Of a stretch of DNA of 64,000 nucleotides, positions 10,865 to 19,626 are shown piece by piece. The notes under the pieces are model-generated. The model did no database searches. It was not told the origin of the DNA and was given only the letters and a program-made list of their open reading frames with translations. Each line of letters begins with the position of its first letter. Position 1 is the first letter of the stretch. The position numbers and the translations under genes are program-made. This DNA is from Pseudomonadota bacterium (GTDB lineage Bacteria; Pseudomonadota; Alphaproteobacteria; Rhodobacterales; Rhodobacteraceae), in contig JBCCNB010000001.1 in NCBI GenBank assembly GCA_039026055.1, positions 17,240 to 81,239 on the forward strand. Reading direction: 5' to 3'.

Positions 10865-11731
10865 ATGATTCCAGCCGCTTTTGAATATTACCGCCCCGAT
10901 TCCATCGCAGGCGTTCTTGAAATCCTGGAAGAGTACGGAGACGACGCACGGGTGATGGCCGGTGGCCACAGCCTTATTCCGATGATGAAGCTTCGGATGG
11001 CTGACGTGCCGCATCTCATCGACCTTCAAAGCGTTGGCGAGCTTATGGGCATCGATATCCGTACGGGAGAGGTGCGCCTGGGTGCGATGACAACCCAGCA
11101 TGAGATCATCCAACATGAAGAGCTGCGCGCCGCATGCCCTATCTTGCGGGAGGCCGCGTTGCAGATTGCAGACCCGCAGGTGCGCTACATGGGCACGGTG
11201 GGCGGTAACTGCGCCAATGGCGATCCCGGCAACGACATGCCCGGGTTGATGCAGTGCTTGGATGCGCAGTTTGAGCTGGTGGGTCCCGAAGGCACGCGCA
11301 CTGTAGCTGCGCGTGATTTCTATGAGGCGGCCTACATGACCGACCGCGAAGATGAAGAGATCATGATCTCGGTTACCATTCCCTTCCACGGGCGCGGTTA
11401 CGCCTATGAAAAGCAAAAGCGTAAGATCGGCGATTATGCGACGGCGGCCGCTGCGGTCACAATGACCAACGACCGGGGCGTTTGCGTCAATGCATCCATC
11501 GCGATGACCAATCTCAGTGATACGCCCATCTGGTCGGAAGACGCCGGTGACGCGCTGATCGGGACATCCGTTGGTGAGGACAACATCAAGGCGGCCGTTG
11601 ATGCAATGCTGGGCGATATTGACCCCCAGCAAGACAATCGCGGACCTGTCGAATTCAAAAAACATGTGGCCGGGATCATCCTGAAGCGCGCGATCACCCG
11701 CGCCTGGGACCGTGCCGAGGGGAGGGCCTGA
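10865..11731 (+). CDS. coxM: Aerobic CO dehydrogenase medium (FAD) subunit
   Basis: [49 protein letters not shown]; RBS GGAGG. Confidence 0.95.
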
Positions 11732-11735
11732 ACCG

Positions 11736-12236
11736 ATGGCAAAATCAAAGAAGATGCACATCAACCTCACCGTGAATGGCAAGGAAGAAGAGTTTCTGGC
11801 CGAACCACGGGAGCTTTTGATCTATACCCTGCGGGAACGCCTCAACTACACCGGGCCGCATATCGGCTGTGAGACATCCCATTGCGGGGCCTGCACGGTT
11901 GAAATCAACGGCAAGTCGGTCAAAGCCTGCACCATGTTCGTGGCCCAGGCTGATGGCGGCGACATCACGACGATCGAAGGGCTGGGAACACCTGATGACC
12001 TGCACCCGCTGCAACAGGCCTTCCGCGAACATCACGGGTTGCAATGCGGATATTGCACGCCTGGCATGATCACGCGGGCCAAGAAGCTGCTCGAAGAAAA
12101 CCCGAACCCCACCGAAGAGGAAATCCGCTTCGGCATGGCGGGCAATATCTGCCGCTGCACCGGCTATCAGAACATCGTGAAATCCATCAAAGCCGCCGCC
12201 ACCGAAATTCAGGCCGCGAGGGAGGCTGCAGAATGA
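11736..12236 (+). CDS. coxS: Aerobic CO dehydrogenase small (2Fe-2S) subunit
   Basis: [35 protein letters not shown]. Confidence 0.95.
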
Positions 12237-14662
12237 AAGATGACGTCACAACCCGCGAAGAACGTGTTGCCAACCTCAAGGGTATGGGCTGTTCGCGCAA
12301 GCGCGTCGAAGACATGCGTTTTACCCAAGGGCAGGGCAACTATGTCGACGATCTGAAAATGCCCGGGATGCTGTCAGGCGATTTCGTACGCTCCCCTTAC
12401 GCCCACGCCCGGATCAAAGACATCGACATATCCGCTGCGTTGGAGGTGCCGGGTGTTCTGGCAGTGTTGACCGCCAAGGATCTGGAGCCGCTGGGCCTGC
12501 ATTGGATGCCCACGCTGGCAGGTGACAAGCAAATGGTGCTGGCCGATGGTAAGGTCCTGTTCCAGGGACAGGAGGTTGCCTTCGTGGTGGCCGAAGACCG
12601 GTTCGCCGCCGCCGACGGGGTTGAGGCCGTCGTGGTCGATTACGAAGAGCTTCCGGTTCTCGTCGACCCGTTCAAGGCGCTCGAGTCCGACGTGGTGCTG
12701 CGCGAAGATCTGGTGGCCGAAGATGGCACAGTGCCCGATGGCGCGCACGGACCCCGCAAACATCACAATCACATCTTCACCTGGGAAGTGGGCGATCAGG
12801 CGGCCACGGAACAGGTGCTCGATGAGGCCGAAGTGGTGGCCGAAGAAATGCTCTATTACCACCGCACCCATCCGTGCCCGCTGGAAACCTGCGGATGCGT
12901 GGCCTCCATGGACAAGGTCAATGGCAAGCTGACGCTCTGGGGCACGTTTCAGGCCCCCCACGCGATCCGCACGGTTGTGTCGCTGATCTCTGGCATTGAA
13001 GAACACAACATCCGCGTGATCTCTCCCGACATTGGGGGCGGCTTTGGCAACAAGGTGGGGGCCTATCCGGGCTATGTCTGCTCTGTTGTCGCCTCCATCG
13101 TGACCGGCAAACCGGTGAAGTGGATCGAGGACCGCATGGAAAACCTCATGACCACCGCGTTTGCCCGTGACTATTGGATGAAGGGCAAGATTGCGGCCAC
13201 GAAAGAGGGCAAGATCCTCGGCCTCTGGTGCCACACAACTGCCGATCACGGCGGGTTTGATGCCTGCGCCGATCCCACCAAGTTTCCGGCCGGGTTCATG
13301 AACATCTGCACCGGGTCCTATGACATCCCCGTGGCCTATCTGGCGGTGGACGGGGTCTACACCAACAAGGCACCGGGCGGGGTCAGCTATCGCTGTTCGT
13401 TCCGCGTGACCGAGGCGGTGTATTTCATTGAACGTATGATTGAGGTTCTGGCGATTGAGCTCAACATGGATGCGGCAGAGCTGCGCCGGATCAACTTCAT
13501 CAAAAAAGAGCAATTCCCCTATCAATCCGCCCTCGGCTGGGAATATGACAGTGGCGACTACCACACCGCCTGGGACAAGGCGTTGGCCGCCGTCGACTAT
13601 GCCGGGCTGCGCGCCGAACAAGCCGAGCGGGTGGAGGCCTTCAAAAGTGGTGAAACCCGACAGCTGATGGGCATCGGCCTGACCTTCTTCACCGAAATCG
13701 TGGGCGCAGGCCCGGTGAAAAACTGTGATATTCTCGGGCTCGGCATGTTCGACAGCTGCGAAATCCGCATTCATCCCACCGGATCGGCCATCGCGCGTCT
13801 GGGCACGATCAGTCAGGGACAGGGGCATGCCACGACCTTCGCGCAAATCCTTGCCTCGGAAATTGGCCTGCCCGCCGACTCCATCACGATTGAAGAAGGC
13901 GACACCGACACAGCCCCCTACGGTCTTGGTACGTACGGCTCCCGGTCCACCCCTGTGGCGGGTGCCGCGACGGCCATGGCTGGGCGCAAAATCCGTGCCA
14001 AGGCGCAGATGATCGCGGCCTACCTGCTGGAAGTCCATGACGATGACGTAGAATTTGACGTGGACCGGTTCGTGGTCAAAGGCGCGCCGGAGCGGTTCAA
14101 GACGATGAAAGAGATCGCATTCGCCGCCTATAATCAGGCCATCCCGGGCATTGAACCGGGTCTGGAGGCGGTCAGCTATTACGATCCGCCAAATATGACC
14201 TATCCGTTTGGGGCCTATGTCTGCGTGATGGACATTGATGTCGACACTGGCGTCGTGGATATCCGCCGCTTCTATGCGCTGGATGATTGCGGCACGCGCA
14301 TCAACCCGATGGTCATCGAAGGGCAAATCCACGGCGGCCTGACGGAGGCGTTGGCCGTCGCCCTCGGGCAAGAGATTGCCTATGACGAGATGGGCAACTG
14401 CAAGACCGGCACGTTGATGGATTTCTTCCTGCCCACCGCGTGGGAAGTGCCCAATTACGAAACCGACCACACCGTCACCCCGTCGCCGCATCATCCCATC
14501 GGCGCGAAGGGCGTGGGCGAAAGCCCCCATGTGGGCGGCGTGCCGTGCTTTTCCAACGCGATACAGGATGCGTTCCGCCCCTTCGGGAATCGCCACACCC
14601 ACATGCCCCATGATCATTGGCGCATCTGGAAAACGGCCAACGACCTCGGATTGCACGGCTAA
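12233..14662 (+). CDS. coxL: Aerobic CO dehydrogenase large (Mo-Cu) subunit, form I
   Basis: Active-site loop GVSYRCSFR (form I consensus AYxCSFR), [22 protein letters not shown]; MSL gene order; ATGA overlap with coxS. Confidence 0.95.
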
Positions 14663-14667
14663 CGCCC

Positions 14668-15543
14668 ATGGGCTGGCAAGCGCTTCAATCCGACTTGGCG
14701 TCGGAGGCCTATCTGGCCTCCGATGATCTGGCCGTGGCGCTTCATCTGGCGATCAGCCTCGGTCGGCCGATCCTGCTGGAAGGGGCCGCAGGCGTGGGCA
14801 AGACGGAAGTGGCCAAAGTTCTGGCGGCCAGCCGAGGCACGCAGCTTATCCGCCTGCAATGCTATGAAGGACTTGATGCGTCTCAGGCCATCTATGAATG
14901 GAACTATCAGCGCCAATTGCTGTCGATCCGCGCCGCCGCAGAGGCGGGAGAAACCGGCCAGGACGTGGAAGCGCGCATTTTTTCCGAAGAGTTCCTGCTG
15001 GAACGCCCGTTGCTCGCCGCCATTCGTCAGCCTGAACCGCCGGTGCTTTTGATCGATGAGATCGACCGCGCTGATGAGGAATTTGAGGCCTACCTCCTCG
15101 AAGTGCTTTCTGACTTCCAGATCACGGTGCCTGAGCTTGGGACGATCAAGGCGACGTCAAAACCCATCGTGGTGCTCACGGCCAATGGCACACGCGATCT
15201 GTCTGACGCCCTGCGGCGGCGGTGTCTATACACCCATATCGGCTATCCCACGATGGAGGCCGAACTGGCGATCCTCCATGCCCGCTGTCCCGGCGTTGAG
15301 GCACATCTGGCGCGCCAGATCGTGGGTTTCGTGCAAACCCTGCGTGCGGAACCGTTGGAAAAGGTGCCTGGTGTCGCCGAAATGCTCGATTTCGCGGGCG
15401 CGATCATAGGGCTTGGTCTGGCGGATCTCACATCTGATCCCACGATTCTGCATGCCACCCTGAAAACCCTTCTCAAGACACAAGAAGATCAGGCCGCCAT
15501 CACCCATGAGGTCATGGCCCGTCTGGCAGGGCAAGCGGCATGA
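14668..15543 (+). CDS. coxD: MoxR-type AAA+ ATPase, CODH maturation
   Basis: Walker A LEGAAGVGKTE, RLQCYEG, Walker B LLIDEIDR, DALRRRC. Confidence 0.9.
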   Translation: MGWQALQSDLASEAYLASDDLAVALHLAISLGRPILLEGAAGVGKTEVAKVLAASRGTQLIRLQCYEGLDASQAIYEWNYQRQLLSIRAAAEAGETGQDVEARIFSEEFLLERPLLAAIRQPEPPVLLIDEIDRADEEFEAYLLEVLSDFQITVPELGTIKATSKPIVVLTANGTRDLSDALRRRCLYTHIGYPTMEAELAILHARCPGVEAHLARQIVGFVQTLRAEPLEKVPGVAEMLDFAGAIIGLGLADLTSDPTILHATLKTLLKTQEDQAAITHEVMARLAGQAA

Positions 15544-16739
15544 CGGCCCGGCCCAATCGTGTGACGCGCTTTGCCGGGCGTGATCCTGGCCCTGCCGCGC
15601 GGATCGCGGGGTTCTTTGGCCATCTGCGCGCCAACGGTCTGTCGCTGGGCGTGGCGGAAACGGGCCTTGCGTTGGAGGCTTTGACACAAGTTGATGCAGC
15701 CAACCCCGACCATGCCCGCCGCGCGCTCAAGGCCGTGTGCGCAGGATGCAAGGACGACGCAGACCAGTTCGACGCGCTCTTTGACGCGTTTTGGATGGAT
15801 GCAGGTCGGGTCAAGCAACGCATGGCCCCCAGCACGGGTCAAAAGGGCAATGACGCCGTTCATTCCAATCGCCATGCGCCCAGTGATCAACGCGATACGG
15901 GTGGCTCCGGCGCGATGACCGCGCCCGATGGGGGCGAGGGAGACGCGCAAAGCGACGGCGAAGGGAAACTGGTGGCGGTCAAGGCCCGCAACCTTGCCCG
16001 CAAGGACCTGCGCGATCTGGTGCGCCCCGAAGATGTGGCCGAGGCCGAAGCGGTCGCCCGTCAAATCGGCCTTGCCTTGCGTGATCAACGGTCCCGCCGA
16101 CGCATCGCATCGCAGAAGGGCCGCCACCTGCATTTCCGCCGCACCATCCGCCGCAGTCTCAGCACCGGGGGCGAACCCATCCGGCTCTTCCATCGCAAAC
16201 GCCCCGACCGGACCCGCAATATCGTGGCGCTCTGCGATGTCTCAGGCTCCATGAGCGTTTACGCGCAGGTCTTCCTTAGTTTTTTAGGGGGTTTGCTGCG
16301 CGCGGACCCGGCATCTGATGCGTATCTTTTCCACACCCGCCTTGTGCGTATCACCGAAGCGCTACGCGACAAGGACGTGATGCGCGGCATCGGGCGCATG
16401 TCACTGATGGCCGACGGGTTCGGCGGCGGATCGAAAATCGGCGCCTGCCTCGACCGATTTTCGCGAAGCTATGCCCGCACCCATGTGAATGGCCGGTCTG
16501 TCGTCATGATCTTGTCGGATGGGTTCGACACCGGACCCGCGCAGGAACTGGGCGACGCGGTAGAGCGCATTCGGCGGCGCGGGGGGCGTATCATCTGGCT
16601 CAACCCGCTCAAGGGATGGCGGGATTACGAACCCATAGCGGCCGGGATGGCCGCGGCTTTGCCCCATGTGGATGTCTTTTCAGCCGCGAACACATTGGCC
16701 GATCTTACCGCCCTTGAACCGGAACTGGTGCGCCTATGA
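15540..16739 (+). CDS. coxE: VWA-domain CODH accessory protein
   Basis: MIDAS motif CDVSGSM, FHTRL, ILSDGFDTG, IWLNPL; ATGA overlap with coxD. Confidence 0.9.
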   Translation: MTARPNRVTRFAGRDPGPAARIAGFFGHLRANGLSLGVAETGLALEALTQVDAANPDHARRALKAVCAGCKDDADQFDALFDAFWMDAGRVKQRMAPSTGQKGNDAVHSNRHAPSDQRDTGGSGAMTAPDGGEGDAQSDGEGKLVAVKARNLARKDLRDLVRPEDVAEAEAVARQIGLALRDQRSRRRIASQKGRHLHFRRTIRRSLSTGGEPIRLFHRKRPDRTRNIVALCDVSGSMSVYAQVFLSFLGGLLRADPASDAYLFHTRLVRITEALRDKDVMRGIGRMSLMADGFGGGSKIGACLDRFSRSYARTHVNGRSVVMILSDGFDTGPAQELGDAVERIRRRGGRIIWLNPLKGWRDYEPIAAGMAAALPHVDVFSAANTLADLTALEPELVRL

Positions 16740-17524
16740 TTGCTGCCCCAAACCTTGATCCCAGCCTGGCGGAGGCCGTCACGGCCCTTGAGGCCGAAGA
16801 GACACCTTTTGCTTTCGCCACGGTCGTGCGCACCGCCGGGTCGACAGCGGCCAAACCCGGCACCAAAGCGCTGTTGTCCGCTGAGGGCGAAATCATCGGG
16901 GGTTGGCTTGGTGGGGGATGTGCCAAGGCCGCCGTGCGCCGCGCCACGCTTGAGGCCCTGGCCGATGGCCAGCCAAAACTGATCTCGATCGCGCCCGAAG
17001 AAGAACTCAACAAAGGCGGTATGGAGCCGGGACAGGAACGTGATGGCGTGCGCTATGTCCGCAATGGCTGTCCGTCCAAAGGCACGATTGATATCTTCAT
17101 CGAACCTTGCCTGCCCGCGCCCGAATTGATCGTCTATGGGGCGTCCCCTGTGGCGCGAGCGCTGTCAACGCTCCCCCAGGGTTTCCAATGGGATATCCGT
17201 GTCCAGGAGGCTGTTGCCCCGCTGCCTGACAGCCAACGACGCCGCTTCATCCTGATCGCGACGCAGGGGCAGGGGGATCTGAACGCCTTGCGCAGCGCGC
17301 TTGCGACAGAGGCCGATTATGTGGGCTTTATCGGCAGCGCGCGCAAATTCGCGGCGCTCTCCGCCAAACTTCTCGAAGAGGGGGTGCCCGCAGATCGGTT
17401 GGAGGCTGTCCGTGCCCCTGCCGGCCTTCCCATTGGCGCGGTCACCCCGGAAGAGATTGCGCTGTCTGCGCTTGCTGAACTCACCCAAGTCCGCCGTGAC
17501 AAGATGCGAGCGCGCGATGCCTAG
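16736..17524 (+). CDS. coxF: XdhC/CoxF-family accessory protein
   Basis: FATVVRTAGSTAAKPG, GWLGGGC, NGCPSKGTIDIFIEP, ATQGQGD, APAGLPIGAVTPEEIALS. Confidence 0.85.
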   Translation: MIAAPNLDPSLAEAVTALEAEETPFAFATVVRTAGSTAAKPGTKALLSAEGEIIGGWLGGGCAKAAVRRATLEALADGQPKLISIAPEEELNKGGMEPGQERDGVRYVRNGCPSKGTIDIFIEPCLPAPELIVYGASPVARALSTLPQGFQWDIRVQEAVAPLPDSQRRRFILIATQGQGDLNALRSALATEADYVGFIGSARKFAALSAKLLEEGVPADRLEAVRAPAGLPIGAVTPEEIALSALAELTQVRRDKMRARDA

Positions 17525-18128
17525 ACATATGGCCGTGATATTGGCAGCGGGGCTGTCGCGTCGGATGGGCGATCAAAACAAGCTTTTGTTGCCCGTTTGG
17601 GGTGAGCCGATGATCCGCCGCACTGTGCGCGCCTACGCGGGCGCGGGGCTTGAGGTCATGGTTGTCACCGGCTTTGCCGCGCGTGATATCACCCACGCGA
17701 TCACCGATTTGCCCGTGCGCTTTGTGCACAATCCCGATTTCGAGCGCGGCCAGAAGACATCTGTCGCGGCGGGCCTGAAGGCCGCCCGGGGCGCAGACGA
17801 TGTTCTGGTCGGTTTGGGCGATCAACCGCGTCTTGGACCTTTGCAGATCAAGAACCTGATCAACGCCCATAGCGCGGCGGGCGGTGGCAAAATCTCAATA
17901 CCCCATGATGGTGATCGCCGGGGCAATCCCATTGCCATTCCCGGCGCTCTCATCGATGCGCTGCTGAGCGATCAGCAAAATCCCGGTTGCCACACATTCA
18001 CCCGCACCCGCCCGGAACTTGTCAACGCGATCCCGCTGACCGATCCGGCCTATTACAGCGATGTGGACACGCCAGAGGCCTATTCGGACCTTCTGCGCGC
18101 CGGTTCCATCGAGGCAGGTGCCACATGA
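17517..18128 (+). CDS. mocA: Molybdenum cofactor cytidylyltransferase (MocA-like NTP transferase)
   Basis: AVILAAGLSRRMG..NKLLL, NPDFERGQKTS, LGDQP, GNP, DVDTPEAY. Confidence 0.8.
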   Translation: MPRHMAVILAAGLSRRMGDQNKLLLPVWGEPMIRRTVRAYAGAGLEVMVVTGFAARDITHAITDLPVRFVHNPDFERGQKTSVAAGLKAARGADDVLVGLGDQPRLGPLQIKNLINAHSAAGGGKISIPHDGDRRGNPIAIPGALIDALLSDQQNPGCHTFTRTRPELVNAIPLTDPAYYSDVDTPEAYSDLLRAGSIEAGAT

Positions 18129-18223
18129 CCTTCGGATCCAGATTGCGCGCGCTCGCCAAGCGTCTGACGCTTTCCAACGCGCAGGCCACGCTTTTGGCAC
18201 AGATCAAGTTTCCCTGTTGTTAG
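18125..18223 (+). CDS. Small 32-aa peptide MTFGSRLRALAKRLTLSNAQATLLAQIKFPCC
   Basis: ATGA overlap with the mocA-like stop; GAGG/AGGT purine tracts upstream; the TAG stop is followed immediately by the coxG RBS (AAGGA); fills the gap exactly. Confidence 0.65.
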   Translation: MTFGSRLRALAKRLTLSNAQATLLAQIKFPCC

Positions 18224-18236
18224 AAAGGAACGCCCC

Positions 18237-18689
18237 ATGGAACTCAGCGACGAAATCACCATCAATGCGCCCAAGGATGTGGTCTATGCGGCCCTCAATG
18301 ACCCTGACGTCCTGCAACGCTGCATTCCGGGTTGCGAGGAACTGACCAAGACCTCCGACACGGATCTTGAGGCAAAGGTGGTGCTGAAAGTGGGCCCGGT
18401 TAAGGCCCGATTTGGCGGGCAGGTCACGCTGGACACTGCGGGCGCGCCGGATGCGTTTTCACTTTCGGGTCAAGGCAATGGTGGCACAGCAGGTCACGCC
18501 AAGGGCGGGGCGGATGTCACGCTGGAAACCGACGGCGATCACACCATCCTGCGCTATGAAGCCAAGGCTGAAATAGGCGGCAAGCTGGCGCAACTTGGCG
18601 GGCGGTTGATCCAAAGCACGGCCAAAAAACTCGCCTCGAAATTCTTCAAATCCTTCGCCGAGGTCATGGAAGAAGAGCGCGTTGTCTGA
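18237..18689 (+). CDS. coxG: CoxG (SRPBCC/START-like) CODH accessory protein, short form without a membrane anchor
   Basis: ALNDPDVLQRCIPGCEEL, KVGPVKARF, GGKLAQLGGRLI, KFF. Confidence 0.9.
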   Translation: MELSDEITINAPKDVVYAALNDPDVLQRCIPGCEELTKTSDTDLEAKVVLKVGPVKARFGGQVTLDTAGAPDAFSLSGQGNGGTAGHAKGGADVTLETDGDHTILRYEAKAEIGGKLAQLGGRLIQSTAKKLASKFFKSFAEVMEEERVV

Positions 18690-19626
18690 TGACATCGCCT
18701 ATATCGAGCACGCGCAGGATGTGCTTGCCAAAGCGGTCGATCTTGCCACGAAGGGAGAGCGCTTTGCGCTGGTGACGTCGGTTGATATCAAGGGCGGTAC
18801 AGCGCGGGAGCTTGGCTCTCTTGCGCTGGTGGCCGCGTCGGGACAGATGGTGGGGTATCTGTCCAACGGGTGCATCGATCAGGACATCAGGCTCAACGCA
18901 CTGGCCAGTCTGGATCAGGGCCAGCGCCAGATTATCCATTACGGCGAAGGATCGCCCTTTCCCGACCTGACACTGCCTTGTGGCGGCATGTTGAAGGTGC
19001 TGCTTGATCCTGCCCCGGACCTCAGAAAGCTCAGGGCAGCCTATAAAGACCTAAAGGCGCGCCGCCCCGCGCAACTGTCGTTTTCAACGCCATCGAATGC
19101 GCCCCTTTTGACGGTGCAGTACATGCCCAAGCCCAAGGTCACATTCGCTGGGCGCGGTGCCGTGTTTCGCGCAGCCGTCATTTTGGCCCATGCATCCGGG
19201 TTCGAAGTGACAGGCCTGTCACCGGACGAACACGATCTGGAGGCGGTGGCCATGGCCGGCGCGGCGCGGGTGTCGCATCTGGCATCACCGCAGGCGGCAT
19301 CACGGCTCGACCTTGATCCCTGGAGCGCCTTTCTCACCTTGTTTCACGACCATTCCTGGGAACCCGACCTTCTGATGGCCGCAACGCGAACACCCTGCCG
19401 CTTCATTGGCGCGTTGGGCAGCCGCCGCACCCATGATGCCCGCCGTCAGATGCTCCTGAGCATGGGCGGCACGCAGCGCGAGGTGGACCGGATCAAGGGG
19501 CCAGTTGGTCTCGTGTCTTCCCTCAGATCTGCTGACCTCATTGCGGCGTCCGTGATTGCAGAGCTCGCAGCGGCGTTCTCCAGAAGTCAGACCGTGATGA
19601 AGGAACCAGCGGTCACAGCGCACTAG
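18682..19626 (+). CDS. Second XdhC/CoxI-family accessory protein
   Basis: GYLSNGCID, YGEGSPFPDLTLPCGG, FHDHSWE, IGALGSRRTH, GPVGL. Confidence 0.85.
   Translation: MSDDIAYIEHAQDVLAKAVDLATKGERFALVTSVDIKGGTARELGSLALVAASGQMVGYLSNGCIDQDIRLNALASLDQGQRQIIHYGEGSPFPDLTLPCGGMLKVLLDPAPDLRKLRAAYKDLKARRPAQLSFSTPSNAPLLTVQYMPKPKVTFAGRGAVFRAAVILAHASGFEVTGLSPDEHDLEAVAMAGAARVSHLASPQAASRLDLDPWSAFLTLFHDHSWEPDLLMAATRTPCRFIGALGSRRTHDARRQMLLSMGGTQREVDRIKGPVGLVSSLRSADLIAASVIAELAAAFSRSQTVMKEPAVTAH

Follow-up and report, generated by a model that had tools for sequence, protein, structure and literature searches.

The window, that is, the whole 64,000-nucleotide (nt) stretch of Rhodobacteraceae DNA analysed here, carries a cox operon for carbon monoxide dehydrogenase (CODH), in which a frame for a peptide of 32 amino acids (aa), ending in KFPCC, lies between a mocA-like gene and coxG. 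The operon runs in the order MHYT-LytTR regulator, coxMSLDEF, mocA, the peptide gene, coxG and a second xdhC, with the following features:

10865..12236, + strand: coxM and coxS
12233..14662, + strand: coxL, form I large subunit with the motif SYRCSFR (TIGR02416)
14617..16739, + strand: coxD (AAA+) and coxE (vWA)
16736..17524, + strand: coxF (XdhC family), without YHS or His/Cys tail
17517..18128, + strand: mocA-like gene for a molybdenum cofactor cytidylyltransferase (TIGR03310, 128 bits, under the cut-off; PF12804), its stop overlapping the start of the peptide gene
18125..18223, + strand: micro-protein frame, 32 aa plus stop, with the KFPCC end, assigned from sequence to a conserved family
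18128..18169, + strand: peptide residues 2-15, a variable basic amphipathic segment, predicted to be helical and to bind the membrane surface
18170..18208, + strand: peptide residues 16-28, a conserved helical core with the consensus L-T-P-E-Q-A-E-x-L-A-x-I-K
18209..18223, + strand: F-P-C-C-stop, with P, C and C invariant; a free C-terminal vicinal dithiol, non-helical in the model
18224..18236, + strand: ribosome-binding site (RBS) and spacer of coxG
18237..18689, + strand: coxG, 150 aa, without a C-terminal anchor
18682..19626, + strand: second XdhC/CoxI-family gene

The ATG of the peptide gene, at 18125, shares an ATGA with the TGA of the mocA-like gene, and its TAG stop codon (18221-18223), reached after 32 codons, is followed by AAAGGA and, across a gap of 13 nt, by the coxG ATG at 18237; 145 of 167 relatives have a spacer of 10-18 nt here. 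An earlier note on this DNA, made from its letters alone, had pointed to the ATGA overlap and to the end of the frame at the coxG RBS, and the window sequence confirms both, together with the ATGA coupling that it reported for coxS/L, coxD/E and coxE/F. As it also stated, the listing of open reading frames (ORFs) holds the peptide merely as the tail of a 78-aa frame, which starts with TTG and spans 17987-18223. Among the 19,125 Met-to-stop frames of 25-50 aa in the peptide's own genome, it is the sole one ending in PCC.

The operon encodes a form I (Mo-Cu) CODH: its CoxL scores 1398 bits against TIGR02416, as compared with a cut-off of 991, contains the Cu-ligand motif xYxCSFR, and is encoded in a cluster that follows the order coxMSL and then coxDEF(G). 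The active-site motif of CoxL (12233-14662) reads SYRCSFR in place of AYRCSFR, a variant frequent in the peptide's clade. CoxF was correctly described in the earlier note as lacking a His/Cys-rich tail, although it does have two invariant internal cysteines, C62 and C112.

The frame and its CC end are conserved in related clusters, as a search for the K-F-P-C-C-stop pattern proposed in the earlier note made clear. In an even draw of 401 genomes of the host family, the back-translated pattern gave 46 matches in 45 genomes, as compared with six for the reversed control; 40 of these lay within cox clusters, five had no cox context and one was left unclassified. The form I CoxL motif was present in 90 of the 401 genomes, and the clusters of all 90 were scored with a profile of alignment A2, taking a score of at least 17 bits as intact. 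The peptide was intact in 57 of these operons, degenerate in five (L083, L088, L090, L101 and L102, judged by eye) and missing from 20, whereas eight were unassessable because of contig ends or the lack of coxF, leaving 82 assessable operons. Tails of intact peptides also occur as RFPCC, YPCC, HPCC, LPCC, PPCC, FPRCC and FPKCC. In L002/L309 (G027), outside the 90-genome tally, the C-terminal frame of the peptide is intact, but the coupled ATG stands in a different reading frame, with a run of A nearby, which reflects either an assembly error or early decay.

A stricter pattern run over GTDB gave at least 119 matches, nearly all in Rhodobacterales; among the 119 listed, 117 follow coxF (70) or mocA (47) and two have no cox context, and 115 of the 117 stand directly before coxG. 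Searching 1.84 billion representatives with the profile returned 174 cluster representatives (50% identity) at E ≤0.001. The 141 newly listed profile matches comprised 128 proteins of less than 100 aa, one MocA fusion and 12 long unrelated proteins that match by repeats, and 126 of the 128 short homologues end in CC. A word-index search recovered 48 proteins of 29-70 aa, labelled, where named, as 'hypothetical' or 'uncharacterized', and the ESM Atlas, entered via homologue P0003, held three hypothetical clusters, all <0.9. RefSeq annotates the peptide in Marivivens JLT3646 (WP_301547026.1); in the PLSDB table for Pseudosulfitobacter SMR1, there is no gene in the gap that holds it.

Comparison of 52 members with Pfam and NCBIfam revealed no curated family, only weak scattered matches (best E 0.009 and 0.054), and the peptide did not match the YHS/TRASH domain PF04945, for which CoxF-YHS proteins served as positive controls. 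A class-wide profile search gave strong matches only in three family genomes of 401 and weak ones elsewhere (best E 3e-4), a draw that was too thin, judging from the later order-level survey. Matches in the PDB were discarded as summed repeat matches to the TAL-repeat LTPEQ, with no single stretch that passes. In the open literature, leaving subscription papers and supplements aside, we found no paper on the peptide, and the string KFPCC only in papers with unrelated titles; coxF was not mentioned in the portion of PMC13240472 consulted. Judging from these comparisons, the peptide represents a real, conserved family of small proteins that is apparently undescribed so far.

Purifying selection acts on the cysteines of the peptide at the protein level, as found in a comparison of the dN/dS kind suggested by the earlier note. 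The ratio of non-synonymous to synonymous differences (pN/pS) over the last five codons was 0.06 in frame and 6.0 and 0.68 after shifting the frame (60 sequences), and it was 0.59 over the twelve codons before them; the values are pairwise and uncorrected, from 60 of 64 clusters after leaving out four PxCC variants, with pairs that are not independent and a set conditioned on profile score. The sequences employ both codons for Cys and all three stops, and the start is coupled or preceded by a Shine-Dalgarno-like site in 57 of the 64 clusters, 30 of them showing a one-base overlap with the upstream stop, as in the window. It is very improbable, then, that this is a chance or neutral frame, open only for translational coupling: its frequent loss and the poor conservation of its N-terminal half would suit such a frame, but the idea is already contradicted by the selection signal, with low pN/pS despite varied stop and Cys codons, and by the 174 cluster representatives. 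The tail is also biased at the nucleotide level. CCG occupies the invariant Pro codon (18212-18214 in the window) in one of 163 sequences, as compared with 22% in a background of Pro-before-TG dicodons, and the Lys and first Cys codons favour AAA and TGT, which points to a constraint at the nucleotide level.

Conservation and sequence features alike bear out the earlier picture of an overlooked micro-protein with a basic amphipathic N-terminus and a terminal Cys-Cys. The family has a mean hydrophobic moment of 0.66, as compared with 0.51 for shuffled sequences, and a net charge of +3.75. An AlphaFold2 model (predicted local distance difference test score 74) places a helix over residues 3-28, with FPCC outside it. 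No transmembrane window was found in the peptides, their best 17-aa hydropathy mean being 0.46 (maximum 1.65, n=138) as compared with 2.12 for Afipia CoxG. A twin-arginine translocation (Tat) or general secretion (Sec) signal was ruled out because the RR pair is variable and the hydrophobic core absent, and the lack of such a core, for either a signal or a transmembrane segment, makes a cytoplasmic location probable. On sequence and model, the peptide appears to possess the conserved, solvent-exposed Cys pair of the copper metallochaperone class.

In the sampled genomes, the peptide was found solely with form I-type clusters. None of 23 coxG genes lying elsewhere than in such clusters (L008-L030) had a profile match beside it, as compared with 57 of the 82 form I operons. 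The equal occurrence beside Cu-free molybdoenzymes that the earlier note named as damaging to its proposal was not seen. In CoxL trees (FastTree and, for 31 rows, a quick IQ-TREE), a single well-supported clade holds the free peptide and, with one exception, the fused forms; it spans the family of the window and another, second order. The sample of this second order, centred on a Hyphomicrobiales genome, contained 351 genomes, 59 with form I and 57 assessable; an intact CC module occurred in 18 of the 57, as a canonical free peptide (six), a divergent free peptide (four) or a part of MocA (two), of CoxF (one) or of CoxG tails (five).

The CC tail is fused in frame to MocA in L078, L215, L347 and P0157, with a possible additional internal start in L078 and L347, and to CoxF in L352. 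A search of 5.8 billion sequences yielded no longer fused forms, a weak negative that P0157 and L352 contradict. Because the CC tail travels as a module, it should act as protein, either in trans or tethered. A conserved CC, often with H-x-H and further Cys, is also present on CoxG tails in eight clusters of another form I CoxL clade (L122:14392-15009, L276, L277, L331, L333, L350, L360 and L365). CoxG from Afipia, Bradyrhizobium and Rhizobium SL42 ends in a KKGW-type helix, a hydrophobic helix, CC and H, and among 27 control CoxG not adjacent to coxF, whose wider context was not inspected individually, none carries a tail CC and 19 have the KKGW-type helix. The tail of the Afipia (Oligotropha) carboxidovorans OM5 type resembles the peptide in belonging to a form I cox operon and in combining a basic amphipathic stretch, a helix and a vicinal CC at similar spacing, but it is fused to CoxG, usually contains a hydrophobic helix, and has further H-x-H and Cys after the CC; its relative in L350 has no hydrophobic stretch and ends GFFAWLLGLFG..KPACC. 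We found no discussion of this CC in the sections of PMC4240915 consulted. A YHS domain (TRASH, PF04945) exceeds the cut-off on CoxF of Paraburkholderia, Thermomicrobium and Natronorubrum, and falls just under it in Deinococcus. Like the peptide, it attaches a Cys-based putative metal module to the form I maturation machinery, but it is a folded 45-aa domain on CoxF of distant lineages. In L364, outside the peptide clade, a MocA without amphipathic helix ends in FPICC beside a CoxG with a hydrophobic tail.

Our best reading, which we hold tentatively, is that the peptide acts as an accessory relay for Cu(I), placed at the membrane by an amphipathic helix. The basic helix would seat it on the inner face of the membrane, and the free C-terminal Cys-Cys pair would pass Cu(I) to the copper-insertion step of CoxE/CoxF, raising the yield of Cu-loaded CODH in an optional rather than required manner; we infer its translation, membrane binding, Cu(I) binding, partner and role in yield. 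The relay fits best because the free dithiol is invariant, is confined to operons of the Cu enzyme and rides on three accessory proteins, and because other form I lineages have unrelated Cys modules. Copper is the sole cofactor unique to form I CODH, which supports this reading, whereas simple sulfur carriage, also raised in the earlier note, is less likely because Cu-free relatives have no peptide. CODH from CoxE and CoxF mutants contains no Cu, according to the results consulted in PMC4240915. In mercuric reductase (MerA), a flexible terminal vicinal dithiol likewise hands a soft metal on to a buried site, as presented in the part of PMC10587081 consulted, but it belongs to a flavoenzyme, handles Hg(II) and has no sequence relation to the peptide.

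Several observations weigh against a copper relay. The peptide is missing from 20 of the 82 assessable family operons, and an intact CC module from 39 of the 57 assessable second-order clusters and also from those of Shinella HZN7 and Rhizobium jaguaris. Its state changes 20 times on a 106-row CoxL tree, at least 14 of the changes being forced by well-supported branches, mostly as losses within the clade, with coxL and coxDEF kept intact. In peptide-less operons, whose ORFs were not scanned against Pfam, a crude search for Cys proteins that might replace the peptide found nothing consistent. In the relic L108 (G066:C56:16517-29517), deletions and stops have broken form I coxMSLDEF while the peptide and coxG are intact, and G066 has no form I CoxL above the cut-off elsewhere; this is a single case, and short genes decay slowly. 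CoxF has two invariant cysteines of its own. Comparison of the peptide with Afipia-type CoxG gave an hhalign probability of 0.2, using a shallow profile from a full-length alignment of eight CoxG sequences, so that the parallel between them is only architectural. Finally, CODH of the Afipia coxG mutant contains 1.48 mol Cu per mol, as compared with 1.47 in the wild type grown alike (Table 1 of PMC4240915, consulted in part), although the text of that paper calls it 'deficient in copper'; therefore, the CC tail of CoxG is not needed for Cu loading there. Given this mutant, the 20 peptide-less operons and the lack of a substitute, the copper delivery proposed in the earlier note survives as a favoured role but not as that of an obligatory carrier, and the peptide appears to be accessory rather than essential for CODH. 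A broader scheme is possible, though we are more doubtful of it: aerobic CODH may use a dedicated vicinal-Cys copper relay that arose several times and changed carriers. In the marine Roseobacter-type clade, the carrier would be a free micro-protein of 32 aa at the membrane surface; elsewhere, MocA, CoxF or CoxG would bear the relay as a tail, and in distant phyla CoxF would bear it as a YHS domain.

The earlier note also suggested that the peptide tethers CoxG. It would then be a detached stand-in for the C-terminal tail of CoxG, bringing the anchor-less protein to the membrane for quinone exchange, with CC serving for attachment or as a structural metal site. In M. smegmatis, CoxG shuttles quinone and carries a transmembrane helix at its C-terminus, according to the part of 10.1101/2024.01.09.574806 consulted. 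The CoxG proteins encoded next to the peptide, 52 in all, measure 147-161 aa, with no tail or anchor. The position directly before coxG (115/117 among the GTDB matches listed), the resemblance of peptide N-termini, such as KPGLLARLF, to the KKGW-type basic amphipathic tail of the 19 control CoxG, and the G066 relic, in which just the peptide and the only coxG matched in that genome survive, agree with a tether. Adjacent coxG is more frequent with the peptide (52/57) than without it (11/20; Fisher p 0.0009, kin not being independent), but on independent pairs their joint loss does not reach significance (median p 0.5, in an underpowered test). Five of the 57 intact peptides have no adjacent coxG, although it occurs elsewhere in all four of those genomes that were checked; the peptide is intact beside a coxG pseudogene in L121; CoxG is equally tail-less in 10 peptide-less operons; and in L342 a free CC peptide adjoins a CoxG with its own hydrophobic tail. 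Since an anchor also leaves the invariance of CC alone and the MocA and CoxF fusions unexplained, we regard a tether as unlikely, although the helix and CC may serve two proposed roles at once.

Somewhat less probable still is that the CC pair carries no metal and is a small redox dithiol that readies the Mo-sulfur site for copper, for example by converting over-sulfurated Mo-S-SH to Mo-SH or Cu(II) to Cu(I). The usual motif of thioredoxin-type chemistry is CxxC, and the operon showed no reductase that could be its dedicated partner, but such a dithiol would also account for the form I specificity and the invariance of CC. A Cu-incompetent Mo-S-SH species is described in the part of PMC4240915 consulted, in which the coxG mutant, normal in Cu, has more sulfane sulfur (2.17 versus 1.53) and lower specific activity (4.36 versus 8.53); this would fit if the likeness to the CoxG tail holds, which is an analogy and not homology. 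We deem it improbable, to a slightly greater degree, that the ORF is a cis-acting leader by which coxG translation is coupled or tuned according to Cu or cysteine. Conservation does peak beside the stop codon, at the near-fixed distance of 10-18 nt from the coxG start, and CCG is avoided at Pro. Rhodobacter has Cu-responsive leaders, and CutF of R. capsulatus is, like the peptide, a short Cys-bearing ORF upstream of a gene in the same host family; unlike it, CutF is exported, combines a Cu motif with a Pro-rich stalling motif, and opens an RBS hairpin (PMC9973294, consulted in part). The peptide lacks a signal peptide, a CxxxC and a Pro-rich arrest motif, is kept where coxG is gone and, at 32 aa, would hardly emerge from the exit tunnel; the analogous CC motifs of CoxG tails are internal. 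The coxG RBS is no more structured than after synonymous recoding (unpaired probability 0.59 versus 0.57; 90 sequences), which does not support a sequestering stem-loop of the CutF/CruR type.

Roseobacter-type bacteria are important marine CO oxidisers, and a copper relay would touch the question of how the Mo-S site of aerobic CODH is supplied with Cu(I). If a vicinal-Cys relay exists, it would supply one missing factor of [CuSMoO2] assembly and rank among the smallest known metallochaperones; the portion of PMC4240915 consulted ends with a call for missing maturation factors. A 32-aa peptide is cheap to synthesise and mutate, making the question of the copper donor directly testable, and may bear on producing CODH in heterologous hosts. 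Among the form I operons of the family, about two in three have the gene, yet annotation misses it in at least one RefSeq record.

Some clusters showed further peculiarities. On the Roseivivax THAF197b plasmid (L121, 12522-13784), the peptide is intact, mocA is a remnant and coxG a pseudogene. An extra ORF of ~150 aa, which we take to be RidA-like, lies between coxL and coxD in L067, L088 and L096, and the same interval holds small, presumably cupin-like ORFs in L328 and L367. In the peptide-less cluster L106, it contains a His/Met-rich, exported-looking ORF, by our assumption DUF305-like and possibly a copper-binding protein.
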